Below, one piece after another: positions 23,931-45,299 of a stretch of DNA of 64,000 nucleotides. This DNA comes from Escherichia coli (GTDB taxonomy: Bacteria; Pseudomonadota; Gammaproteobacteria; Enterobacterales; Enterobacteriaceae). A program made the translations under genes and the position numbers. Below the pieces are notes generated by a model that worked only from the letters and a program-made list of their open reading frames with translations, had not been told where the DNA came from and did not search any database. Positions within the stretch are counted from its first letter, which is position 1, and each line of letters opens with the position of its first letter. The stretch lies in NCBI RefSeq assembly GCF_030013595.1, contig NZ_CP122768.1. The stretch is one strand, 5' to 3'.

Positions 23931-23939
23931 TTGAATCTG

Positions 23940-25031
23940 ATGCGTTTTCTGCGCCGACCAATATCGCTGCGCCAACGGCTGATATTGACCATTGGGGCCA
24001 TTTTGTTGGTGTTTGAGCTGATCAGCGTCTTCTGGCTATGGCATGAAAGTACCGAGCAGATTCAGCTGTTTGAGCAGGCGCTACGCGACAATCGCAACAA
24101 CGATCGCCACATCATGCGTGAGATCCGCGAGGCGGTCGCCAGCCTGATCGTCCCCGGCGTCTTTATGGTCAGCCTGACGCTATTTATCTGCTATCAGGCG
24201 GTACGCCGCATCACCCGCCCGCTGGCGGAGCTGCAAAAAGAGCTGGAAGCGCGCACCGCCGACAACTTAACGCCCATTGCCATTCACAGCGCCACCCTCG
24301 AAATCGAAGCGGTGGTTTCGGCGTTAAACGATCTGGTCAGTCGCCTGACCAACACGCTGGATAACGAAAGGTTGTTTACCGCTGACGTCGCGCACGAACT
24401 GCGAACGCCACTGGCGGGGGGGCGTTTGCATCTGGAACTGCTGGCGAAAACGCATCACATTGATGTAGCACCGTTAGTGGCACGGCTTGATCAGATGATG
24501 GAGAGCGTCTCCCAGCTGCTGCAACTGGCGCGTGCCGGACAGTCATTTTCTTCCGGTAATTATCAACATGTAAAACTGCTGGAAGATGTCATTCTCCCCT
24601 CGTATGACGAACTCAGTACCATGCTCGACCAGCGACAGCAAACCCTGCTATTGCCAGAGAGCGCCGCCGACATCACCGTTCAGGGTGATGCAACCCTGCT
24701 GCGGATGTTATTGCGAAACCTGGTAGAAAACGCCCATCGTTACAGCCCGCAAGGCAGCAACATTATGATTAAGCTGCAAGAAGATGGCGGAGCGGTCATG
24801 GCTGTTGAAGATGAAGGACCGGGTATTGATGAGAGTAAATGCGGGGAGTTGAGTAAAGCATTTGTACGTATGGACAGCCGTTATGGCGGGATTGGTCTGG
24901 GGTTAAGTATTGTCAGCCGCATTACACAGTTGCATCACGGGCAGTTTTTCCTGCAAAACCAGCAAGAGACTTCCGGCACGCGGGCCTGGGTACGGCTGAA
25001 GAAAGATCAGTACGTGGCAAACCAGATATAA
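23940..25031 (+). CDS. basS: Sensor histidine kinase BasS (PmrB)
   Basis: ORF track 23931..25031 begins at TTG; the ATG at 23940 (MRFLRRPISL) gives 363 aa; two TM segments, H-box (ADVAHELRTP), HATPase motifs. Confidence 0.9.
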   Translation: MRFLRRPISLRQRLILTIGAILLVFELISVFWLWHESTEQIQLFEQALRDNRNNDRHIMREIREAVASLIVPGVFMVSLTLFICYQAVRRITRPLAELQKELEARTADNLTPIAIHSATLEIEAVVSALNDLVSRLTNTLDNERLFTADVAHELRTPLAGGRLHLELLAKTHHIDVAPLVARLDQMMESVSQLLQLARAGQSFSSGNYQHVKLLEDVILPSYDELSTMLDQRQQTLLLPESAADITVQGDATLLRMLLRNLVENAHRYSPQGSNIMIKLQEDGGAVMAVEDEGPGIDESKCGELSKAFVRMDSRYGGIGLGLSIVSRITQLHHGQFFLQNQQETSGTRAWVRLKKDQYVANQI

Positions 25032-30973: not shown

Positions 30974-31417
30974 ATGCCGTTAAGTCCCTACCTCTCTTTT
31001 GCCGGTAACTGTGCCGACGCAATTGCTTATTATCAACGTACGTTGGGCGCTGAACTGCTCTATAAAATCAGCTTCGGCGAAATGCCAAAATCAGCGCAGG
31101 ACAGCGCCGAGAACTGCCCTTCCGGAATGCAATTTCCCGATACCGCCATCGCCCACGCCAATGTGCGCATTGCCGGAAGCGATATCATGATGAGCGATGC
31201 TATACCGTCAGGAAAAGCCAGCTACTCCGGCTTTACGCTGGTGCTCGATTCGCAACAGGTCGAAGAAGGAAAACGCTGGTTTGACAACCTTGCCGCTAAC
31301 GGAAAAATCGAAATGGCCTGGCAGGAAACTTTCTGGGCGCATGGCTTCGGCAAAGTCACCGATAAATTTGGCGTACCGTGGATGATTAATGTCGTCAAAC
31401 AACAACCAACGCACTAA
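30974..31417 (+). CDS. yjdN: VOC/glyoxalase-fold protein PhnB/YjdN
   Basis: ORF track 147 aa, ATG start; position between yjdM and phnC. Confidence 0.88.
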   Translation: MPLSPYLSFAGNCADAIAYYQRTLGAELLYKISFGEMPKSAQDSAENCPSGMQFPDTAIAHANVRIAGSDIMMSDAIPSGKASYSGFTLVLDSQQVEEGKRWFDNLAANGKIEMAWQETFWAHGFGKVTDKFGVPWMINVVKQQPTH

Positions 31418-31443
31418 CCCGCCGGGAGGGCCGCCCTCCCGCA

Positions 31444-31505
31444 CTGTCATCGAAATCTCGTTAACTCTTCATCCGTTAGTCACTTTTAGTTAACAAAATC
31501 GTCAC
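31444..31505 (+). promoter_or_regulatory. Putative Pho box array of the phnC promoter
   Basis: 11-bp-phased 7-mers resembling CTGTCAT (ctgtcat cgaa atctcgt ...; tagtcac tttt agttaac aaaa tcgtcac) 45-105 bp upstream of the phnC ATG. Exact boxes not verified. Confidence 0.5.
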
Positions 31506-31549
31506 AATAATCCGCCACGATGGAGCCACTTTTTTAGGGAGGCTGCATC

Positions 31550-32338
31550 ATGCAAACGATTATCCGTGTCGAGAAGCTCGCCAAAACCTTCAATCAGCAT
31601 CAGGCGCTGCACGCGGTTGATCTGAACATTCATCACGGTGAAATGGTGGCTCTGCTTGGGCCGTCGGGTTCCGGCAAATCCACCCTTTTACGTCACTTAA
31701 GCGGTTTGATTACCGGCGATAAATCTGCCGGTAGCCATATCGAGCTGCTGGGTCGCACAGTCCAGCGCGAAGGCCGCCTGGCCCGCGATATCCGCAAAAG
31801 CCGCGCCAACACCGGCTACATCTTCCAACAATTCAACCTGGTGAATCGCCTGAGCGTACTGGAGAACGTGCTGATTGGCGCGCTCGGCAGCACGCCATTC
31901 TGGCGCACCTGTTTTAGCTACTTCACCCGCGAGCAGAAACAGCGCGCGTTACAGGCGCTGACCCGCGTTGGCATGGTGCACTTTGCCCATCAGCGCGTTT
32001 CCACCCTCTCCGGCGGACAGCAGCAGCGTGTGGCGATTGCCCGTGCGCTGATGCAGCAGGCGAAGGTGATTCTGGCCGATGAACCCATCGCCTCGCTGGA
32101 CCCGGAATCGGCGCGCATCGTGATGGACACCCTGCGCGACATTAACCAGAACGACGGCATTACCGTGGTCGTCACGCTGCATCAGGTGGATTACGCCCTG
32201 CGCTACTGCGAACGCATCGTCGCCCTGCGCCAGGGGCACGTCTTCTACGACGGCAGCAGCCAACAGTTTGATAACGAACGTTTTGACCATCTCTACCGCA
32301 GCATCAACCGCGTCGAAGAAAACGCGAAAGCTGCCTGA
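31550..32338 (+). CDS. phnC: Phosphonate ABC transporter, ATP-binding subunit
   Basis: ORF track 262 aa; Walker [13 protein letters not shown] signature LSGGQQQR; GGGAGG RBS. Confidence 0.93.
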
Positions 32339-32362
32339 CATCCCCATCATTGAGGAAAACGA

Positions 32363-33379
32363 ATGAACGCTAAGATAATTGCCTCGCTGGCCTTCACCAG
32401 CATGTTCAGCCTCAGCACCCTGTTAAGCCCGGCGCACGCCGAAGAGCAGGAAAAGGCGCTGAATTTCGGCATTATTTCAACGGAATCACAGCAAAACCTG
32501 AAACCGCAATGGACGCCGTTCTTACAGGATATGGAGAAGAAGCTGGGCGTGAAGGTCAACGCCTTCTTTGCCCCGGACTACGCGGGCATTATCCAGGGAA
32601 TGCGCTTCAACAAAGTGGATATCGCCTGGTACGGCAATCTGTCAGCGATGGAAGCGGTGGATCGCGCCAATGGCCAGGTCTTCGCCCAGACGGTCGCGGC
32701 GGATGGATCGCCGGGTTACTGGAGCGTGTTGATCGTCAACAAAGATAGTCCGATCAACAACCTGAACGATCTGCTGGCGAAGCGGAAAGATCTCACCTTC
32801 GGCAATGGCGATCCTAACTCTACCTCCGGCTTCCTCGTCCCTGGTTACTACGTCTTCGCCAAAAACAATATCTCCGCCAGCGACTTCAAGCGCACCGTCA
32901 ACGCCGGGCATGAAACCAACGCGCTGGCCGTCGCCAACAAGCAGGTGGATGTGGCGACCAACAACACCGAAAACCTCGACAAGCTGAAAACCTCCGCGCC
33001 AGAGAAGCTGAAAGAACTGAAGGTGATCTGGAAGTCGCCGCTGATCCCAGGCGATCCGATCGTCTGGCGCAAGAATCTTTCCGAAACCACCAAAGACAAG
33101 ATCTACGACTTCTTTATGAATTACGGCAAAACGCCGGAAGAGAAAGCGGTGCTGGAACGCCTAGGCTGGGCCCCGTTCCGCGCCTCCAGCGACCTGCAAC
33201 TGGTGCCGATTCGCCAGCTCGCACTGTTTAAAGAGATGCAGGGCGTGAAAAGCAATAAAGGGCTGAATGAGCAGGACAAGCTGGCAAAAACCACCGAGAT
33301 TCAGGCGCAGCTGGATGACCTGGACCGCCTGAACAACGCGTTAAGCGCGATGAGTTCGGTGAGTAAAGCGGTGCAGTAA
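32363..33379 (+). CDS. phnD: Phosphonate ABC transporter, periplasmic binding protein
   Basis: ORF track 338 aa with signal peptide (MNAKIIASLAFTSMFSLSTLLSPAHA). Confidence 0.93.
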   Translation: MNAKIIASLAFTSMFSLSTLLSPAHAEEQEKALNFGIISTESQQNLKPQWTPFLQDMEKKLGVKVNAFFAPDYAGIIQGMRFNKVDIAWYGNLSAMEAVDRANGQVFAQTVAADGSPGYWSVLIVNKDSPINNLNDLLAKRKDLTFGNGDPNSTSGFLVPGYYVFAKNNISASDFKRTVNAGHETNALAVANKQVDVATNNTENLDKLKTSAPEKLKELKVIWKSPLIPGDPIVWRKNLSETTKDKIYDFFMNYGKTPEEKAVLERLGWAPFRASSDLQLVPIRQLALFKEMQGVKSNKGLNEQDKLAKTTEIQAQLDDLDRLNNALSAMSSVSKAVQ

Positions 33380-33439
33380 TGTGCTCGATCGGTCCCCTCT
33401 CCCACAGGGAGAGGGAGAAAACATTAAACGGAGCAATAT

Positions 33440-34219
33440 ATGCAAACCATCACCATCGCCCCACCCAAGCGCAGCTGGTTCTCGCTTCTGAGCTGGGCCA
33501 TTGTTCTCGCCGTGCTGGTCGTCTCGTGGCAGGGCGCGGAAATGGCCCCGCTCACGCTGATTAAAGACGGCGGCAACATGGCAACCTTCGCCGCCGACTT
33601 CTTCCCGCCCGATTTCAGCCAGTGGCAGGATTACCTCACCGAAATGGCCGTCACGCTGCAAATCGCCGTCTGGGGCACCGCGCTGGCGGTGGTTCTCTCC
33701 ATCCCCTTCGGTCTGATGAGCGCCGAAAACCTAGTGCCGTGGTGGGTTTACCAGCCCGTACGCCGCCTGATGGACGCCTGCCGCGCCATTAACGAAATGG
33801 TCTTCGCCATGCTGTTCGTGGTCGCCGTCGGCCTTGGCCCGTTCGCTGGCGTGCTGGCGCTGTTTATCCACACCACCGGCGTGCTCTCCAAACTGCTTTC
33901 CGAAGCGGTAGAAGCAATTGAACCCGGCCCGGTGGAAGGTATTCGCGCCACCGGTGCCAACAAGCTCGAAGAGATCCTCTACGGCGTGCTGCCGCAGGTG
34001 ATGCCGCTGCTGATCTCCTACTCCCTCTATCGCTTCGAATCCAACGTCCGTTCGGCCACCGTTGTTGGCATGGTCGGCGCTGGCGGGATCGGCGTCACCC
34101 TGTGGGAAGCGATTCGCGGTTTCCAGTTCCAGCAAACCTGCGCCCTGATGGTGCTGATTATCGTCACGGTCAGCCTGCTGGATTTCCTCTCTCAACGGTT
34201 GCGTAAGCACTTTATCTGA
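33440..34219 (+). CDS. phnE: Phosphonate ABC transporter permease, apparently intact
   Basis: ORF track 259 aa uninterrupted; ABC permease EAA-like region; two tandem near-identical octamers gctggcgt/gctggcgc at 33845..33860 with the reading frame open. Confidence 0.9.
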
Positions 34220-34239
34220 TAAGCGAGGCATTGATATCT

Positions 34240-34965
34240 ATGCACTTGTCTACACATCCGACCAGCTACCCAACACGCTATCAGGAGATAGCCGCAAAAC
34301 TTGAGCAGGAGCTTCGTCAACACTACCGCTGCGGCGACTATCTTCCCGCCGAGCAGCAACTGGCGGCGCGCTTTGAGGTGAACCGCCACACCCTGCGCCG
34401 CGCCATCGACCAACTGGTGGAAAAAGGCTGGGTACAGCGCCGTCAGGGCGTCGGCGTGCTGGTGCTGATGCGCCCGTTCGATTACCCGCTCAACGCCCAG
34501 GCGCGTTTTAGCCAGAACCTGCTGGATCAGGGCAGCCATCCCACCAGCGAAAAACTGCTGTCTGTGCTGCGCCCGGCCTCCGGTCACGTCGCTGACGCGC
34601 TGGGGATAACCGAGGGCGAGAACGTTATCCACCTGCGCACCCTGCGCCGGGTCAACGGCGTCGCGCTCTGTTTAATCGACCACTACTTTGCGGACCTCAC
34701 CCTCTGGCCGACGCTGCAACGCTTCGACAGCGGCTCGCTGCACGATTTTCTGCGCGAGCAAACGGGGATTGCGCTGCGCCGCAGCCAGACGCGGATCAGC
34801 GCCCGCCGCGCCCAGGCCAAAGAGTGCCAGCATCTTGAAATCCCGAATATGTCGCCGCTGCTGTGCGTGCGCACCCTTAACCACCGTGACGGTGAAAGCA
34901 GCCCGGCGGAGTACTCCGTCAGCCTGACGCGCGCCGACATGATTGAATTCACTATGGAGCACTGA
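34240..34965 (+). CDS. phnF: GntR-family repressor of the phn operon
   Basis: ORF track 34231..34965 begins at TTG; the ATG at 34240 (MHLSTHPTSYPTRYQ) gives 241 aa; N-terminal winged HTH, C-terminal UTRA-like domain. Confidence 0.9.
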   Translation: MHLSTHPTSYPTRYQEIAAKLEQELRQHYRCGDYLPAEQQLAARFEVNRHTLRRAIDQLVEKGWVQRRQGVGVLVLMRPFDYPLNAQARFSQNLLDQGSHPTSEKLLSVLRPASGHVADALGITEGENVIHLRTLRRVNGVALCLIDHYFADLTLWPTLQRFDSGSLHDFLREQTGIALRRSQTRISARRAQAKECQHLEIPNMSPLLCVRTLNHRDGESSPAEYSVSLTRADMIEFTMEH

Positions 34966-35418
34966 ATGCACGCAGATACCGCGACCCGCCAGCACTGGAT
35001 GTCCATACTGGCACACAGCCAACCGGCTGAACTGGCAGCCCGCCTGAAGGCGCTGAACATCACCGCCGACTATGAGGTGATCCGCGCCGCTGAAACCGGC
35101 CTGGTGCAGATTCAGGCGCGGATGGGTGGCACCGGCGAACGCTTTTTTGCTGGCGACGCCACGCTCACCCGCGCCGCCGTACGCCTGACTGACGGCACGC
35201 TCGGCTACAGCTGGGTGCTGGGGCGCGACAAACAGCACGCCGAACGCTGCGCGCTGATCGACGCGCTGATGCAGCAAACCCGCCATTTTCAAAACTTATC
35301 AGAAACTCTTATTGCCCCGCTGAACGCTGACCGTATGGCACGCATTGCCGCACGCCAGGCCGAAGTAAACGCCAGCCGGGTCGACTTCTTTACGATGGTT
35401 CGCGGAGATAACGCATGA
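34966..35418 (+). CDS. phnG: C-P lyase core complex subunit PhnG
   Basis: ORF track 150 aa; TGAATG coupling with phnF. Confidence 0.92.
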
Positions 35419-35999
35419 CCCTGGAAACCGCTTTTATGCTTCCCGTGCAGGATGCCCAGCACAGTTTTCGTCGCCTGTTAAAGGCCATGAGCGAGCCGGG
35501 CGTGATTGTCGCCCTGCATCAGCTCAAGCGCGGCTGGCAGCCGCTGAATATCGCCACCACCAGCGTGCTGCTGACGCTGGCCGATAACGACACGCCGGTG
35601 TGGCTTTCTGCGCCATTAAGTAACGATATCGTCAGCCAGAGCCTGCGTTTTCATACCAACGCGCCGCTGGTCAATCAGCCGGAACAGGCGACCTTCGCGG
35701 TAACGGATGAGGCGATTTCCAGCGAACAGCTCAACGCTCTTTCCAGCGGCACCGCTGTTGCGCCGGAAGCGGGCGCGACGCTGATTTTACAGGTCGTCAG
35801 CCTGAGCGGCGGGCGCATGCTGCGCCTTACTGGCGCGGGTATTGCCGAAGAACGAATGATCGCTCCGCAGCTGCCGGAGTGCATTCTGCACGAACTCACC
35901 GAGCGCCCGCACCCGTTCCCGCTCGGCATCGACCTGATCCTGACCTGCGGCGAGCGCCTGCTGGCTATCCCGCGAACCACTCATGTGGAGGTGTGCTGA
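35415..35999 (+). CDS. phnH: C-P lyase core complex subunit PhnH
   Basis: ORF track 194 aa; ATGA overlap with phnG. Confidence 0.92.
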
Positions 36000-37063
36000 T
36001 GTACGTTGCCGTGAAAGGGGGCGAGAAGGCGATCGACGCCGCCCACGCCCTGCAAGAGAGCCAACGCCGGGGCGATACCGATTTGCCCGAACTGAGCGTC
36101 GCCCAGATTGAACAACAGCTTAACCTCGCGGTAGATCGCGTGATGACTGAAGGCGGCATTGCCGACCGCGAACTGGCGGCGCTGGCGCTGAAACAGGCCA
36201 GCGGCGATAACGTCGAAGCAATTTTCCTGCTGCGCGCCTACCGTACCACGCTGGCTAAGCTTGCGGTAAGCGAGCCGCTCGACACCACGGAGATGCGTCT
36301 CGAACGGCGTATTTCAGCGGTTTATAAAGATATTCCCGGCGGCCAGCTGCTTGGCCCAACCTACGACTACACCCATCGCCTGCTCGATTTCACCCTGCTG
36401 GCAAACGGCGAAGCGCCGACGCTGACCACCGCCGACAGCGCACAACAGCCGTCGCCGCACGTTTTCAGCCTGCTGGCGCGTCAGGGGCTGGCGAAGTTTG
36501 AGGAGGATAGCGGCGCACAGCCGGATGACATCACCCGCACGCCGCCGGTTTACCCCTGCTCACGCTCCTCCCGCCTGCAACAATTAATGCGCGGGGACGA
36601 AGGCTATTTGCTGGCGCTGGCCTACTCCACCCAGCGTGGTTACGGACGCAATCACCCGTTCGCGGGCGAGATCCGCAGCGGATATATCGACGTGTCGATT
36701 GTGCCGGAAGAGCTGGGATTTGCGGTGAACGTCGGCGAACTGCTGATGACCGAATGTGAAATGGTCAACGGTTTTATCGACCCGCCGGATGAGCCGCCGC
36801 ACTTCACGCGCGGCTACGGGCTGGTGTTCGGCATGAGCGAGCGCAAAGCGATGGCGATGGCGCTGGTTGACCGTGCGTTGCAGGCTCCGGAGTACGGCGA
36901 GCACGCGACAGGCCCGGCGCAGGATGAAGAGTTCGTGCTGGCGCATGCCGACAACGTCGAAGCCGCAGGCTTTGTCTCGCACCTTAAACTCCCGCACTAC
37001 GTCGATTTCCAGGCCGAACTGGAGCTACTCAAACGTCTGCAACAGGAGCTGAACCATGGCTAA
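35999..37063 (+). CDS. phnI: C-P lyase subunit PhnI (ribosyl-triphosphate phosphonate-forming nucleosidase)
   Basis: ORF track 35879..37063 extends upstream out of context; the ATG at 35999 ([19 protein letters not shown]) overlaps the phnH stop (TGATG) and gives 354 aa. Confidence 0.9.
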   Translation: MYVAVKGGEKAIDAAHALQESQRRGDTDLPELSVAQIEQQLNLAVDRVMTEGGIADRELAALALKQASGDNVEAIFLLRAYRTTLAKLAVSEPLDTTEMRLERRISAVYKDIPGGQLLGPTYDYTHRLLDFTLLANGEAPTLTTADSAQQPSPHVFSLLARQGLAKFEEDSGAQPDDITRTPPVYPCSRSSRLQQLMRGDEGYLLALAYSTQRGYGRNHPFAGEIRSGYIDVSIVPEELGFAVNVGELLMTECEMVNGFIDPPDEPPHFTRGYGLVFGMSERKAMAMALVDRALQAPEYGEHATGPAQDEEFVLAHADNVEAAGFVSHLKLPHYVDFQAELELLKRLQQELNHG

Positions 37064-37901
37064 TCTGAGCGGCTACAACTTTGCCTACCTCGACGAGCAG
37101 ACCAAACGCATGATCCGCCGCGCCATCTTAAAAGCGGTGGCGATCCCCGGTTATCAGGTGCCGTTTGGCGGGCGCGAGATGCCGATGCCGTACGGCTGGG
37201 GAACTGGTGGTATCCAGCTTACCGCCAGCGTGATTGGCGAAAGCGACGTGTTGAAGGTGATTGACCAGGGTGCGGATGACACCACCAACGCCGTGTCGAT
37301 TCGCAACTTCTTTAAGCGCGTGACCGGGGTAAACACCACTGAACGTACGGACGATGCGACGCTTATCCAGACGCGTCACCGCATCCCCGAAACGCCGCTG
37401 ACCGAAGATCAGATCATTATCTTCCAGGTGCCAATCCCGGAACCGCTGCGCTTTATCGAGCCACGCGAAACGGAGACCCGCACTATGCACGCGCTGGAGG
37501 AGTACGGCGTGATGCAGGTGAAACTGTATGAAGATATCGCCCGCTTCGGTCATATCGCCACCACCTATGCTTATCCGGTGAAGGTGAACGGGCGCTACGT
37601 GATGGACCCGTCGCCGATCCCGAAATTCGATAACCCGAAAATGGACATGATGCCCGCCCTGCAGCTGTTCGGCGCAGGGCGCGAGAAGCGCATCTATGCG
37701 GTGCCGCCGTTTACCCGCGTGGAAAGCCTCGATTTCGACGATCACCCGTTCACCGTTCAGCAGTGGAATGAGCCATGCGCCATCTGCGGATCGACCCACA
37801 GCTATCTTGATGAAGTGGTGCTGGATGACGCCGGAAACCGCATGTTTGTCTGCTCCGATACCGATTATTGCCGCCAACAGAGCGAGGCGAAAAGCCAATG
37901 A
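37056..37901 (+). CDS. phnJ: C-P lyase catalytic subunit PhnJ (Fe-S / radical SAM-dependent)
   Basis: ORF track 281 aa; C-terminal Cys cluster CAICGSTHSYLDE...CSDTDYC. Confidence 0.93.
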   Translation: MANLSGYNFAYLDEQTKRMIRRAILKAVAIPGYQVPFGGREMPMPYGWGTGGIQLTASVIGESDVLKVIDQGADDTTNAVSIRNFFKRVTGVNTTERTDDATLIQTRHRIPETPLTEDQIIIFQVPIPEPLRFIEPRETETRTMHALEEYGVMQVKLYEDIARFGHIATTYAYPVKVNGRYVMDPSPIPKFDNPKMDMMPALQLFGAGREKRIYAVPPFTRVESLDFDDHPFTVQQWNEPCAICGSTHSYLDEVVLDDAGNRMFVCSDTDYCRQQSEAKSQ

Positions 37902-38656
37902 ATCAACCGTTACTTTCGGTCAACAACCTGACCCACCTTTACGCGCCGGGCAAAGGCTTTAGCGATGTCTCTTTTGATTTATGGCCGGGGGAAGTGCTAG
38001 GCATCGTCGGGGAATCCGGCTCCGGGAAGACCACGCTGCTGAAATCAATCTCCGCGCGCCTGACGCCGCAGCAGGGGGAAATTCACTATGAAAACCGTTC
38101 CCTCTATGGCATGAGCGAGGCCGACCGCCGTCGCCTGCTGCGCACCGAATGGGGCGTGGTGCATCAGCATCCGCTCGACGGCCTGCGCCGCCAGGTGTCG
38201 GCAGGCGGCAATATCGGCGAGCGGCTGATGGCGACCGGGGCGCGTCATTACGGCGACATCCGCGCCACCGCGCAGAAGTGGCTGGAAGAGGTGGAGATTC
38301 CCGCCAACCGGATCGACGACCTGCCGACCACCTTTTCCGGCGGCATGCAGCAACGTTTGCAGATTGCCCGCAACCTGGTGACGCATCCGAAGCTGGTGTT
38401 TATGGACGAGCCAACCGGCGGGCTGGATGTATCGGTACAGGCGCGCCTGCTCGATCTGCTGCGCGGTCTGGTGGTGGAGCTGAATCTGGCGGTGGTGATT
38501 GTCACCCACGATCTGGGCGTCGCCCGCCTGCTGGCGGACCGTTTGCTGGTGATGAAACAGGGGCAAGTGGTGGAGAGTGGGTTAACCGACCGCGTGCTCG
38601 ACGACCCTCACCATCCATATACCCAGCTGCTGGTGTCATCGGTTTTGCAGAATTGA
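37898..38656 (+). CDS. phnK: C-P lyase-associated ABC-type ATPase PhnK
   Basis: ORF track 37868..38656; the ATG at 37898 ([11 protein letters not shown]) gives 252 aa; Walker [10 protein letters not shown]. Confidence 0.92.
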
Positions 38657-38662
38657 GCCAGT

Positions 38663-38745
38663 GCCGGATACGGCGTAAACGCCTTATCCGGCCGACAAAT
38701 GCGCTCCCCGTAGGTCGGATAAGACGCGTCAGCGTCGCATCCGAC
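38663..38745. repeat. REP elements (two units) inside the phn operon between phnK and phnL
   Basis: gccggatacggcgtaaacgccttatccggcc and taggtcggataagacgcgtcagcgtcgcatccgac read directly. Confidence 0.7.
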
Positions 38746-38766
38746 ACCCGAACCACGAGGCGAAAA

Positions 38767-39447
38767 ATGATTAACGTACAAAACGTCAGTAAAACCTTCA
38801 TCCTGCACCAGCAAAACGGCGTGCGCCTGCACGTCTTACAACGTGCCTCGCTCACCGTCAACGCAGGCGAATGCGTGGTGCTCCACGGCCACTCCGGCAG
38901 CGGCAAATCAACTCTGCTGCGCTCGCTGTACGCCAACTATCTGCCCGATGAAGGGCAAATCCAGATCAAACATGGTGACGAGTGGGTAGACCTGGTCACT
39001 GCACCAGCGCGCAAAGTGGTGGAGATCCGCAAAACCACCATCGGCTGGGTGAGCCAGTTTCTGCGCGTCATCCCGCGTATTTCGGCACTGGAAGTGGTGA
39101 TGCAGCCTCTGCTCGATACCGGCGTACCGCGTGAAGCCTGCGCCGCTAAAGCCGCCCGATTACTGACGCGCCTGAACGTGCCTGAACGCCTGTGGCACCT
39201 GGCACCATCGACCTTCTCCGGTGGCGAACAGCAGCGTGTCAACATCGCCCGTGGCTTTATCGTCGACTACCCCATTCTGCTGCTCGACGAACCTACCGCC
39301 TCGCTGGACGCTAAAAACAGCGCCGCCGTAGTGGAACTGATCCGCGAAGCCAAAGCCCGCGGCGCGGCCATCGTCGGTATCTTCCATGACGAAACCGTGC
39401 GCGAGCAAGTCGCCGACCGCCTGCACCCAATGGGAGTCTCTTCATGA
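38767..39447 (+). CDS. phnL: C-P lyase-associated ABC-type ATPase PhnL
   Basis: The same frame is open from 38149 (ORF track), but the ATG at 38767 ([11 protein letters not shown]) follows the REP-containing intergenic region and gives 226 aa with Walker [10 protein letters not shown]. Confidence 0.9.
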
Positions 39448-40580
39448 TTATCAATAACGTCAAACTGGTGCTGGAAAACGAGGTGGTACACGGTTCTCTG
39501 GAGATGCAGGACGGCGAAATCCGCGCCTTTGCCGAAAGCCAGAGTCACCTGTCAGAAGCAATGGACGGCGAAGGCGGCTGGCTGCTACCGGGGCTGATTG
39601 AGCTGCATACCGATAATCTGGATAAATTCTTCACCCCGCGTCCAAAAGTGGACTGGCCCGCCCACTCGGCAATGAGTAGCCACGACGCGCTGATGGTGGC
39701 GAGCGGCATCACCACCGTGCTGGACGCGGTGGCGATTGGCGACGTGCGCGACGGCGGCGATCGGCTGGAGAATCTGGAGAAGATGATCAACGCCATCGAA
39801 GAGACGCAGAAACGCGGCGTCAACCGCGCCGAGCACCGTCTGCATCTGCGCTGCGAACTGCCGCATCACACCACGCTGCCGCTGTTTGAAAAACTGGTGC
39901 AGCGCGAACCGGTGACGCTGGTGTCGCTGATGGATCACTCGCCGGGCCAGCGCCAGTTCGCCAATCGCGAGAAGTATCGCGAATATTATCAGGGCAAATA
40001 CTCGCTCACCGATGTGCAGATGCAGCAGTACGAAGAGGAACAGCTGGCGCTTGCCGCACGCTGGTCACAGCCTAATCGCGAAACTATCGCCGCAATGTGC
40101 CGCGCGCGACACATTGCGCTCGCCAGCCACGATGACGCCACGCACGCGCACGTTGCCGAATCTCACCAGCTTGGCAGCGTGATCGCCGAATTTCCCACCA
40201 CGTTCGAAGCGGCAGAAGCCTCGCGCAAGCATGGCATGAACGTGCTGATGGGCGCGCCGAATATCGTGCGCGGCGGTTCGCACTCCGGCAACGTGGCGGC
40301 CAGTGAACTGGCGCAGCTTGGCCTGCTGGATATCCTCTCTTCCGACTACTACCCCGCCAGCCTGCTCGATGCGGCATTTCGCGTCGCCGATGACGAGAGC
40401 AACCGCTTTACGCTGCCGCAGGCGGTGAAGCTGGTGACTAAAAATCCGGCGCAGGCGCTTAATCTTCAGGATCGCGGAGTGATTGGCGAGGGCAAACGCG
40501 CCGACCTGGTGCTGGCGCATCGCAAGGGCAACCACATTCATATCGACCACGTCTGGCGTCAGGGTAAAAGGGTGTTCTGA
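39444..40580 (+). CDS. phnM: PhnM, amidohydrolase-family ribosyl-triphosphate phosphonate diphosphohydrolase
   Basis: ORF track 378 aa; ATGA overlap with phnL. Confidence 0.92.
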
Positions 40581-41137
40581 TGACGGGAAAACTGATTTGG
40601 TTAATGGGTCCGTCCGGCTCCGGGAAAGACAGCCTGCTGGCGGAACTCCGCCAGCGGGAACAAACCCAGCTACTGGTAGCGCATCGCTACATCACGCGTG
40701 ATGCCAGCGCCGGAAGTGAAAATCATATCGCCTTAAGCGAGCGGGAGTTTTTTACCCGCGCGGGGCAAAATCTGTTGGCCTTGAGCTGGCATGCTAATGG
40801 TTTGTATTACGGTGTCGGCATTGAGATCGACCTCTGGCTGCACGCCGGATTCGACGTCGTGGTTAACGGCTCACGCGCCCACCTGCCGCAGGCGCGGGCG
40901 CGCTATCAATCGGCGCTGCTGCCCATTTGCTTACAGGTTTCGCCGGAGATCCTGCGCCAGCGCCTGGAAAACCGTGGCCGTGAAAACGCCAGTGAAATTA
41001 ACGCCCGGCTGGCGCGCGCCGCCCGCTATACTCCTCAGGATTGCCATACGCTCAATAATGACGGCAGCCTGCGCCAGTCGGTCGACACGCTGCTGACGCT
41101 GATTCATCAGAAGGAGAAACACCATGCCTGCTTGTGA
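40580..41137 (+). CDS. phnN: Ribose 1,5-bisphosphate phosphokinase PhnN
   Basis: ORF track 185 aa; P-loop GPSGSGKDS; 1-nt overlap with phnM stop. Confidence 0.92.
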
Positions 41138-41558
41138 GCTTCGCCCGGCCACGCAGTACGATACCGACGCAGTTTACGCGCTGATTTGTGAGCTAAAACA
41201 GGCGGAGTTTGACCACCATGCGTTTCGCGTGGGGTTTAACGCCAATCTGCGCGATCCGAACATGCGCTACCATCTGGCGCTGCTGGATGGCGAAGTTGTC
41301 GGCATGATCGGCCTGCATTTGCAGTTTCATCTGCATCATGTCAACTGGATCGGCGAAATTCAGGAACTGGTGGTGATGCCGCAGGCGCGCGGTCTGAACG
41401 TCGGCAGCAAATTACTGGCATGGGCAGAAGAAGAAGCCCGCCAGGCCGGGGCCGAAATGACCGAGCTTTCCACCAACGTGAAGCGCCACGACGCGCACCG
41501 TTTTTACCTGCGTGAAGGCTACGAGCAGAGCCACTTCCGCTTCACCAAGGCGCTGTAA
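41124..41558 (+). CDS. phnO: Aminoalkylphosphonate N-acetyltransferase PhnO (GNAT)
   Basis: ORF track 144 aa; overlaps the phnN 3' end. Confidence 0.92.
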
Positions 41559-41559
41559 C

Positions 41560-42318
41560 ATGAGCCTGACCCTCACACTTACTGGCACTGGCGGCGCACA
41601 GGGCGTTCCCGCATGGGGCTGTGAGTGCGTGGCCTGCGTCAGAGCGCGGCGCTCACCGCAGTATCGCCGCCAGCCATGCAGCGGCGTCGTGAAGTTTAAC
41701 GACGCGATCACCCTGATCGACGCCGGGCTGCACGATCTCGCCGATCGCTGGTCGCCCGGATCGTTCCAGCAGTTTTTGCTGACGCACTACCATATGGATC
41801 ACGTGCAGGGGCTGTTTCCGCTGCGCTGGGGCGTGGGCGATTCGATCCCGATCTACGGCCCGCCGGATGAACAGGGCTGCGACGATCTGTTTAAACATCC
41901 GGGCCAGCTTGATTTCAGCCACACGATGGAACCGTTTGTGGTGTTTGATTTACAGGGGTTACAGGTCACGCCCCTGCCGCTCAACCACTCAAAACTGACC
42001 TTCGGTTATCTGCTGGAAACGGCACATAGCCGGGTGGCGTGGCTGTCTGACACCGCAGGCCTACCGGAAAAAACGCTGAAATTTTTACGCAATAATCAAC
42101 CGCAGGTGATGGTGATTGATTGCAGCCACCCACCGCGCGAGGATGCACCGCGTAATCACTGTGATTTAAATACCGTGCTTGCGCTGAATGAAGTTATCCG
42201 CTCGCCGCGCGTGGTTCTGACCCATATCAGCCATCAGTTTGATGCGTGGCTGATGGAGAACTTACTGCCGTCAGGGTTTGAGGCGGGGTTTGATGGGATG
42301 GAGATTGGGGTGGCGTGA
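41560..42318 (+). CDS. phnP: PhnP, metallo-beta-lactamase-fold cyclic phosphodiesterase
   Basis: ORF track 41512..42318; the ATG at 41560 ([20 protein letters not shown]) gives 252 aa; HxHxDH motif (THYHMDH). Confidence 0.92.
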
Positions 42319-42345
42319 GGGAAAATACCCGCGCCGGCCCCTATA

Positions 42346-42675
42346 TCAACGCCCATACTCATCTTCCATTCTCCGCTCTTCATCCTCCAGTTGCCGACGC
42401 TCCTGATCAAGCTGGCGCTGGCGATCGTCCAGCTGCCTGCGGCGATCTTCAAACTGACGGCGGCGGTCGTCATATTGTCTGCGCCGATCGTCGCTCACTT
42501 CACGCTGCCAGCCGTCGTCGTGCGAATCTTCATAGTCTCGCCCACGGTCAGGGTTATAAGCATCGTTAATCGCCTGCTGAATATTGCCAATGGTGTCGTC
42601 GATAATATCGGCCTGGGCCGGAACGGTAGACAGCGTGAGCAGGGTGAATAAAAGAAATAGCGGAAAGCGTTTCAT
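42346..42675 (-). CDS. yjdP: Small secreted protein with tandem charged DDRRRQ-type repeats
   Basis: ORF track 109 aa, ATG start; signal peptide MKRFPLFLLFTLLTLSTVPAQA, then about six 8-residue acidic/basic repeats (DDRRRQYD, DRRRQFED, ...). Confidence 0.85.
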   Translation of the reverse strand: MKRFPLFLLFTLLTLSTVPAQADIIDDTIGNIQQAINDAYNPDRGRDYEDSHDDGWQREVSDDRRRQYDDRRRQFEDRRRQLDDRQRQLDQERRQLEDEERRMEDEYGR

Positions 42676-42743
42676 TAGCCAACCTCAAAAAGAAACTCTA
42701 TCCACATTAGTCATTACTCATCCATGCAAGTAGTGGACGAATC

Positions 42744-43061
42744 TCAATTTCTCCGCTGCTCTATTGCCGTAATCGCCTCCACGCGTTGTTGATGACGACC
42801 GCCTTCGTACTGCGCGCCCAGCCACGCATCCACAATCATTTTTGCCAGTTCGAGGCCAACCACTCGTGAACCAAAAGCCAGTGCAACTTCACTGGCGTAA
42901 TGCGGATAATCAGTGCGCTCTGACGGCCTGGTTTCTTTATCAATCCCCTCACTCATTGACCATGAATAAAAGGCTGGCACAGCAACGCGGAATCCTGCGG
43001 TGCCAGCGACATGACCGCCCATTGCTCCGGTACGTTTTTTAATAAAAAACACCGGTTGCAT
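42744..43061 (-). pseudogene. rpiB: rpiB-like remnant (ribose-5-phosphate isomerase B family), shortened and rearranged
   Basis: ORF track 105 aa; segments SERTDYPHYAS-VALA and FGSRVVGLELAKMIVDAWLGAQYEGGRHQQRVEAITAIEQRRN match recalled E. coli RpiB (149 aa) but are joined with about 50 residues missing, and the N-terminal 38 residues do not align. Only about 250 bp separate it from the yjcS start. Confidence 0.5.
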
Positions 43062-43313
43062 TGATTAATTGTGCTCAGTATTTGCCGAAGTACAATATAT
43101 ATAATAAATATATAAAACACCTCATATTATTTACAGAAATAATGAATTCGCGTAATTTTCCCTCTTCAGCACAAATGCCTAATAAAATGGCGCGTTCAGC
43201 TCACACTTCTACTTATTAAAGTCGCAATTTCCCAATTATGATAACGCCAGCTTCAAATGACGTATTTTGCATGGGTTACATATTTACGACATAAATGATA
43301 AATGGAGATTTAT

Positions 43314-45299
43314 ATGAATAACTCTCGGTTATTCCGTTTGAGCAGGATTGTTATTGCGTTAACTGCCGCCAGCAGCATGATGGTAAATACCGCTAATGCG
43401 AAAGAGGAAGCGAAAGCCGCCACTCAATATACCCAACAGGTTAATCAGAATTACGCCAAATCATTACCGTTTAGCGATCGTCAGGATTTTGACGATGCCC
43501 AGCGTGGATTTATCGCCCCGCTGCTGGATGAAGGTATTCTGCGTGATGCTAACGGCAAAGTTTACTACCGCGCAGACGATTACAAATTTGATATTAATGC
43601 CGCTGCGCCGGAAACCGTAAACCCCAGCCTGTGGCGTCAGTCGCAAATCAACGGTATTTCTGGCCTGTTCAAAGTCACCGATAAAATGTATCAGGTGCGC
43701 GGCCAGGATATCTCTAACATTACGTTCGTTGAGGGCGAGAAAGGCATTATTGTTATCGACCCGCTGGTGACGCCGCCTGCCGCAAAAGCCGCACTTGATC
43801 TTTACTTCCAGCATCGTCCGCAAAAACCGATTGTTGCTGTTATTTACACCCACAGCCACGCCGACCATTATGGCGGTGTGAAAGGCATTATCTCTGAAGC
43901 GGATGTTAAATCCGGCAAAGTGCAGGTGATCGCTCCGGCAGGCTTTATGGACGAAGCCATCAGCGAAAACGTGCTGGCGGGTAACATCATGAGCCGCCGT
44001 GCGCTCTACTCTTACGGTCTGTTACTGCCGCACAACGCGCAAGGCAACGTGGGCAACGGCCTGGGCGTGACGCTGGCAACCGGCGACCCGAGCATTATTG
44101 CACCGACTAAAACTATCGTCAGAACTGGCGAGAAGATGATTATCGACGGCCTGGAATTTGACTTCCTGATGACTCCGGGTAGCGAAGCGCCAGCCGAAAT
44201 GCACTTCTATATTCCGGCCCTGAAAGCCCTGTGTACCGCCGAGAACGCCACGCATACCCTGCACAACTTCTACACTCTGCGCGGCGCGAAAACCCGCGAT
44301 ACCAGCAAGTGGACCGAGTACCTGAACGAAACGCTGGATATGTGGGGTAACGACGCGGAAGTACTGTTTATGCCGCACACCTGGCCGGTCTGGGGCAATA
44401 AGCATATCAATGATTATATTGGTAAATATCGCGATACCATCAAGTACATTCACGACCAGACCCTGCACCTGGCGAACCAGGGCTACACCATGAATGAAAT
44501 CGGCGACATGATTAAGCTGCCGCCTGCGCTTGCCAATAACTGGGCCAGCCGCGGCTATTACGGTTCTGTCAGCCACAACGCCCGCGCGGTGTATAACTTC
44601 TATCTTGGCTATTACGACGGTAACCCGGCTAACCTGCATCCGTATGGTCAGGTGGAGATGGGTAAACGTTACGTGCAGGCGCTGGGCGGTTCTGCCCGTG
44701 TCATCAACCTGGCGCAAGAAGCGAACAAGCAAGGTGATTACCGCTGGTCGGCAGAACTGCTGAAACAGGTGATTGCCGCCAACCCTGGTGACCAGGTCGC
44801 GAAGAATCTGCAAGCGAATAACTTTGAACAGCTGGGCTATCAGGCCGAGTCCGCCACCTGGCGCGGTTTCTACCTGACCGGCGCGAAAGAGCTGCGCGAA
44901 GGGGTACATAAGTTCAGCCACAGCTCCACCGGTTCCCCGGACACCCTTCGCGGGATGTCGGTCGAAATGCTATTCGACTTTATGGCCGTTCGCCTCGATA
45001 GCGCGAAAGCCGCAGGTAAGAATATCAGCCTGAACTTCAATATGAGCAACGGCGATAACCTCAACCTGACGCTGAACGATAGCGTGCTTAACTACCGTAA
45101 AACGCTGCAACCTGAAGCCAACGCCTCTTTCTACATCAGCCGTGAAGATCTTCACGCCGTGCTGACCGGACAAGCCAAAATGGCGGATCTGGTAAAAGCG
45201 AAGAAAGCCAAAATTATTGGCAATGGCGCGAAACTGGAAGAAATTATTGCCTGTCTGGATAATTTCGATTTGTGGGTGAATATCGTAACCCCAAATTAA
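43314..45299 (+). CDS. yjcS: Secreted metallo-beta-lactamase-fold alkyl/aryl sulfatase-like protein
   Basis: ORF track 43302..45299; the ATG at 43314 (MNNSRLFRL) has GGAG 6 bp upstream; signal peptide; HxHxDH motif ([10 protein letters not shown]); about 661 aa. Confidence 0.9.

Follow-up and report, generated by a model that had tools for sequence, protein, structure and literature searches.

The phn operon of Escherichia coli is known in a functional and in a cryptic state, and the state of phnE distinguishes them. Strain K-12 is cryptic owing to an 8-bp insertion in phnE, and a revertant was found to have deleted 5'-GCTGGCGT at ORF positions 407-414; BL21, an E. coli B strain, is phnE+, a functional gene is carried by 'the vast majority' of isolates, and transport of phosphonate (and Pi) by PhnCDE has been reported for a phnE+ K-12 strain (Stasi et al. 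2019, PMC6469041). The deletion of the octamer has been put down to replication slippage between direct repeats, occurring at high frequency (Moreau and Loiseau 2016, PMC4759930). The alleles designated phn(EcoB), phn(EcoK0) and phn(EcoK+) were described likewise by Hove-Jensen et al. 2012, and phosphonate, once imported, feeds a pathway of PhnGHIJKLM, PhnP and PhnN (PMC3463581). The distinction between cryptic and functional phnE has been known since 1991 and is repeated in passages of current papers (PMC6469041, PMC4759930, PMC3463581). Regarding regulation, the phn operon is strongly dependent on PhoB: a PhoB site with the motif ATTAACCAAATCGTCACA was mapped by ChIP-seq upstream of phnC in MG1655, and phnC RNA levels were 32,470 in the wild type and 13 in a phoB deletion (Fitzgerald et al. 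2023, PMC10294691).

Here we describe the phn locus within a stretch of 64,000 nucleotides of DNA, referred to as the window. The data indicate that the window is very probably E. coli chromosome with a complete phnCDEFGHIJKLMNOP operon, in which phnE is of the ordinary, functional phnE+ type.

Results

The phnE allele of the window

The gene and its repeat tract are located as follows.

33440..34219, + strand: phnE, permease subunit, 259 aa; uninterrupted ORF with a match to TIGR01097
33845..33860, + strand: tandem octamers GCTGGCGT GCTGGCGC, codons 136-141; the slippage tract that has three copies in K-12

An earlier note on this DNA had described phnE as an uninterrupted ORF of 259 codons with two tandem octamers in frame. 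Both descriptions proved exact in position and frame: the ORF runs from ATG to TGA over 780 nt with no internal stop, and the octamers, at 33845..33852 (GCTGGCGT) and 33853..33860 (GCTGGCGC), begin at ORF nucleotide 406 in frame 0 and code for A136-G-V-L-A-L141. No other GCTGGCGY octamer was found in the whole gene, so that exactly two copies are present at ORF positions ~406-421, as in alleles of the phn(EcoB)/phn(EcoK+) type. The encoded protein scored 311.3 bits against a cut-off of 216.7 with the NCBIfam equivalog profile TIGR01097, residues 16-258 covering profile positions 8-251 of 252. In addition, the phnE DNA was 100% identical to a RefSeq phnE annotated as intact (WP_001193496.1) in E. 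coli HCP5S3_I2, and the genes directly upstream, phnC and phnD, both exceeded their own equivalog cut-offs.

As a sequence feature, the octamer pair is not unusual. Tandem 8-mer pairs with no more than one mismatch number 21 in the window, vs 15.2 ± 4.1 in shuffled sequences; with the tract at chance level by itself, its meaning comes solely from the known biology of K-12. A scan of the operon for sigma-70 promoters and terminators gave nothing over background, and one 'terminator-like' match in it was the octamer tract itself. No family was found in an Rfam scan of 31300..43400.

For comparison, we used the phnE genes of a K-12-type O16:H48 strain, PG20180053, and of the E. coli B derivative Nico21(DE3). 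In PG20180053 the gene is 788 nt long, contains three octamers, GCTGGCGT GCTGGCGT GCTGGCGC, and is flagged as a 'frameshifted' pseudogene, whereas that of Nico21(DE3) is intact, with 780 nt and two octamers. These records bear out what the earlier note had stated, namely that K-12 phnE is broken by an additional copy of an 8-bp repeat and that E. coli B has the functional allele; the literature agrees on BL21 being phnE+ and also on the reversion of K-12 through slipped-strand loss (PMC6469041, PMC4759930). In the alignment that the note had proposed, the window phnE, with two octamers against three in K-12, aligned with the B allele and did not contain the additional octamer of K-12. An octamer count in K-12 equal to that of the window and a hidden frameshift in phnE were both looked for, and neither was found.

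Translation of the K-12 allele showed that the frame departs after residue 140 and reaches a stop about 49 codons further on. When one octamer was removed from this allele in silico, a 259-aa protein was recovered that differs from the PhnE of the window at residue 21 alone. The comparison with the B protein gave the same picture, with 258 of the 259 residues equal and I21V as the sole change. At the nucleotide level, 26 synonymous and one non-synonymous differences were counted in the window gene in the comparison with the B allele or with the K-12 allele minus one octamer.

As read from the sequence, the octamer tract falls in the central part of the permease, and the final membrane segments and, around residues 155-185, an EAA-type loop are placed downstream of it. 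We take the region around residues 155-185 to be the cytoplasmic EAA-type loop of ABC importer permeases. Since loop and last helices follow the octamers, a shift of +8 would remove the portion through which PhnE couples to PhnC. In the presence of two octamers, the frame continues through all of PhnE, including the EAA-type loop and the C-terminal membrane helices, and a PhnE of full length would allow PhnCDE to assemble and to import phosphonates. On the other hand, the third octamer of K-12, with its early stop, costs this half of the permease and leaves the pathway cryptic.

Distribution of phnE alleles among E. coli genomes

Of 5,426 complete E. coli genomes, 5,394 had a match to the phnE DNA, with identities of 95-100%. 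The alleles were typed with a 144-nt query taken from K-12, with the tract at its centre, and were separated by match length and identity band. Two copies of the octamer were present in ~81% of the 5,394 matching records (~4,385, as 136-nt matches in the 80-95% bands) and three copies in ~19% (~1,009, as 144-nt matches, of which 999 were at least 99% identical and 10 more were 95-99% identical to the query). One record had four copies, seen as a 152-nt match in a 796-nt phnE annotated as frameshifted (NZ_CP139125.1, strain YZ22PE244, a pig-farm isolate). The window thus has the majority allele, and an intact phnE is the norm in E. coli and not a distinguishing feature. Among the matches listed, the carriers of three copies included laboratory strains and also isolates of human, chicken, duck, dog, cucumber and river origin. 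The frameshift allele of K-12, found in ~19% of complete genomes, human, poultry and environmental isolates included, is therefore no laboratory artefact.

This copy-number variation also bears on a different reading, according to which the two-octamer tract is a contingency switch in wild strains that flips often between an ON state with two copies and an OFF state with three, in which case the ON state of the window would be a mere snapshot. Several features of the tract agree with such a switch: it is a tandem repeat inside an ORF, its 8-nt unit is not a multiple of three, and two, three and four copies occur naturally among complete genomes. Furthermore, K-12-type flanks carry alleles with two (136 nt, 94.4%), three (144 nt) and four copies (152 nt), and slippage from OFF to ON is frequent in K-12 (PMC6469041, PMC4759930). 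The flanking sequences, however, speak against frequent flipping. A synthetic query, in which three copies were set between the flanks of the window, matched no record at 99% identity or more; it matched 1,006 records at 95% or more, and the best 40 of the 1,006 all had 97.2%, as K-12-type flanks would be expected to give. Together with the near-identity of 999 of the ~1,009 three-copy records to K-12 over 144 nt, which fits one haplotype and not recurrent switching, this distribution makes the three-copy frameshift allele look like a single inherited haplotype. Recurrent independent switching across lineages was not found, the three-copy alleles being confined to K-12-type flanks, and the lack of such an allele on the haplotype of the window argues against recurrent phase variation. 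In addition, two copies are a poor substrate for slippage compared with three, and tandem 8-mer pairs of such quality occur at chance frequency. We consider a contingency switch highly improbable, and an ordinary functional allele is retained as the preferred reading of this locus.

The phn operon and its spacers

The other genes of the operon are listed below; scores are given against the cut-off of the family model.

31550..32338, + strand: phnC, phosphonate ABC transporter ATP-binding subunit, 262 aa; NF007438, 606 bits vs 365; dN/dS 0.09
32363..33379, + strand: phnD, periplasmic phosphonate-binding protein, 338 aa; TIGR03431, 376 bits vs 261; protein identical to K-12
34240..34965, + strand: phnF, GntR-type regulator, 241 aa; NF007486, 518 bits vs 363
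34966..35418, + strand: phnG; TIGR03293, 178 bits vs 89
35415..35999, + strand: phnH; TIGR03292, 204 bits vs 91.5
35999..37063, + strand: phnI; Pfam PF05861, 1-350 of 354 residues, E = 7e-155
37056..37901, + strand: phnJ, C-P bond-cleaving radical SAM subunit; Pfam PF06007, E = 4.5e-151
37898..38656, + strand: phnK; TIGR02323, 411 bits vs 303
38767..39447, + strand: phnL; TIGR02324, 371 bits vs 256
39444..40580, + strand: phnM; NF011981, 806 bits vs 375
40580..41137, + strand: phnN; NF007485, 358 bits vs 153
41124..41558, + strand: phnO; NF007530, 315 bits vs 142
41560..42318, + strand: phnP, phosphoribosyl cyclic phosphodiesterase, full length, with L116Q; TIGR03307, 423 bits vs 272

The presence of all 14 phn genes, from phnC to phnP, had been noted before, and each of them is of full length and matches its family model. 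They occupy 31550..42318 in canonical order and the same orientation, with proper starts and stops, K-12 lengths and no internal stops. Twelve exceeded NCBIfam equivalog cut-offs; PhnI and PhnJ had no NCBIfam match, so Pfam models were used for them. In the comparison with K-12, dS values of 0.10-0.25 and dN/dS values of 0-0.14 were obtained across the 14 genes (0.012 for phnE), which is the pattern expected of genes under purifying selection. PhnJ contains G32, C241, C244, C266 and C272, which we take to be the catalytic Gly and the Cys cluster of the radical SAM mechanism.

The spacer between phnD and phnE differs from that of the reference strains and contains one feature.

33393..33418, + strand: GC-rich hairpin CCCCTCTCCC aca GGGAGAGGG in the phnD-phnE spacer; from the alignment, with a fold of -24 kcal/mol and z = -3.8

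K-12 and B have a REP pair of 105 nt between the two genes; the window has instead a spacer of 60 nt with the hairpin (33380..33439), and this short form is present in ~1,502 of 5,426 genomes (~28%). The hairpin formed by CCCCTCTCCC and GGGAGAGGG may resemble the 'boxC' repeat of E. coli. Downstream of it, phnE has kept its GGAG ribosome-binding site, and we expect the change in the spacer to be without effect.

Other spacers of the region were also inspected. A 110-nt gap inside the operon separates phnK from phnL (38657..38766) and has an equal length in K-12; the peptide translated there in ORF 38149..39447 is presumably typical of REP/BIME elements. Downstream of the operon (region 42319..43310), the phnP-yjdP spacer is 28 nt in the window vs 146 nt in K-12. 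Past yjdP, a 318-nt rpiB remnant is all that is annotated in the nearest genome, with yjcS directly after it, and alsR, which comes next after rpiB in K-12, has no counterpart in this region.

The upstream region of phnC

One site was assigned upstream of the operon.

31489..31506, + strand: orthologue of the PhoB-bound site upstream of phnC, GTTAACAAAATCGTCACA; 16/18 bases of the MG1655 ChIP-seq motif ATTAACCAAATCGTCACA

For the Pho-box-like promoter of the earlier note, consensus matching gave no support: scanning the window with CTGTCAYN4CTGTCAY and up to three mismatches gave 12 matches vs 12.4 expected, which is the level of chance. The consensus scan being uninformative, the promoter claim rests on orthology with the K-12 region upstream of phnC. 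The sequence GTTAACAAAATCGTCACA belongs to an 11-nt phased array of heptamers, the first of which, at 31444..31450, is a perfect CTGTCAT. The spacer between yjdN and phnC, 135 nt long, is equal to that of K-12 and B at 129 of the 135 positions, and two of the six substitutions fall within the mapped PhoB motif. The variant found in the window is common to 391 records at an identity of at least 99%. By homology with the site mapped in MG1655, this region would function as the phnC promoter.

Nearest genome and private substitutions

The nearest genome was that of E. coli HCP5S3_I2 (NZ_CM149870.1), from pig faeces in the UK, with 6 mismatches in 24,780 aligned bases. In that genome yjdN, phnC to phnP and yjdP are all annotated as intact by PGAP. 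The genes from phnC to phnO are identical in the two sequences, and the sole difference within phn is base 41906, where codon 116 of PhnP has changed from CTG to CAG, so that the window has Q116 and HCP5S3_I2 has L116.

The L116Q substitution allows a reading in which the ORFs are intact and the strain is nonetheless phosphonate-negative or slow. According to it, L116Q cripples the cyclic phosphodiesterase and phosphorus is trapped as 5-phosphoribosyl 1,2-cyclic phosphate, a form of crypticity reached by a route other than phnE. The substitution is private: of the 5,272 E. coli records that matched a 61-mer query, not one has this base. We aligned the PhnP orthologues of K-12, Citrobacter, Klebsiella, Thiothrix, Marinobacter, Methylibium and Photobacterium, and in these seven sequences, down to 44% identity, column 116 is Leu or Ile, within the motif KHPG[L/I]LDF and between the invariant G115 and L117; the solved K-12 PhnP (3G1P) also has Leu at this position. 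It has to be added that phnP is required for phosphonate use, since phnP mutants obtain no usable phosphorus from phosphonate and a lowered phnP expression slows growth (PMC3463581). Against these points, residue 116 is not one of the aligned columns with invariant His, Asp or Cys, the substituted protein still scores 423 bits against its cut-off of 272, and enzymes often remain partly active after a single polar substitution. It may also be that the source assembly has a sequencing error at this base. Altogether, we regard an operon silenced through PhnP as unlikely. If true, L116Q would be a second, undescribed natural route by which the operon is silenced despite a 'working' phnE. The reading that we prefer is still that of a functional operon.

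Other differences between the window and HCP5S3_I2 lie outside the operon. In pmrB/basS (23931..25031, + strand), base 24421 gives codon 164 as GGG (Gly), vs GTG (Val) in both the nearest genome and K-12. This V164G change, in the numbering of the 366-aa RefSeq protein, corresponds to V161G in the classical 363-aa numbering and lies in TPLAG[G]RLHLE, adjoining the His box; its 61-mer was found in 4 of 5,394 complete genomes. V161G has been reported in colistin-resistant E. coli from pigs, with an MIC of 16 mg/L in the presence of this change alone (PMC5702452). The strain may thus be chromosomally resistant to colistin. A second private change in PmrB, at base 24961, is R344Q (classical R341Q), where the nearest genome and K-12 have Arg. 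On the other hand, codon 517 of crfC (28529) is Arg in the window and in K-12 and Cys in HCP5S3_I2, so this difference is private to HCP5S3_I2 and not to the window.

Discussion

A functional phn operon would operate in the strain as follows. Under phosphate starvation, PhoB would activate the phnC promoter, PhnCDE would bring phosphonate into the cell, and the products of phnG to phnP would turn it into PRPP-linked phosphate. A phosphonate-positive phenotype is likely, and the prediction for phosphate starvation is growth on methylphosphonate or aminoethylphosphonate, together with uptake of Pi via PhnCDE.

The finding as such is already known: the polymorphism is well documented, and the window shows the common form of it. 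The allele is carried by about four fifths of sequenced E. coli, and the finding has little weight beyond correct annotation.

Comparison with known systems

The locus resembles the phn(EcoK0) allele of K-12 in its location, in the order of the genes and in the sequence and position of the octamers. The difference lies in the third copy of GCTGGCGT in K-12, with the resulting shift of the frame after residue 140 and a premature stop, a copy that the window does not have. The phn(EcoB) allele of B/BL21 shares with the window the two octamers, the 780-nt ORF, the protein of 259 aa and the order of the flanking genes. It is set apart by 21 nucleotide differences of synonymous type plus I21V in the window phnE, by the phnD-phnE spacer (60 nt with the GC hairpin in the window, 105 nt with the REP pair in B) and by the 6 substitutions upstream of phnC in the window.
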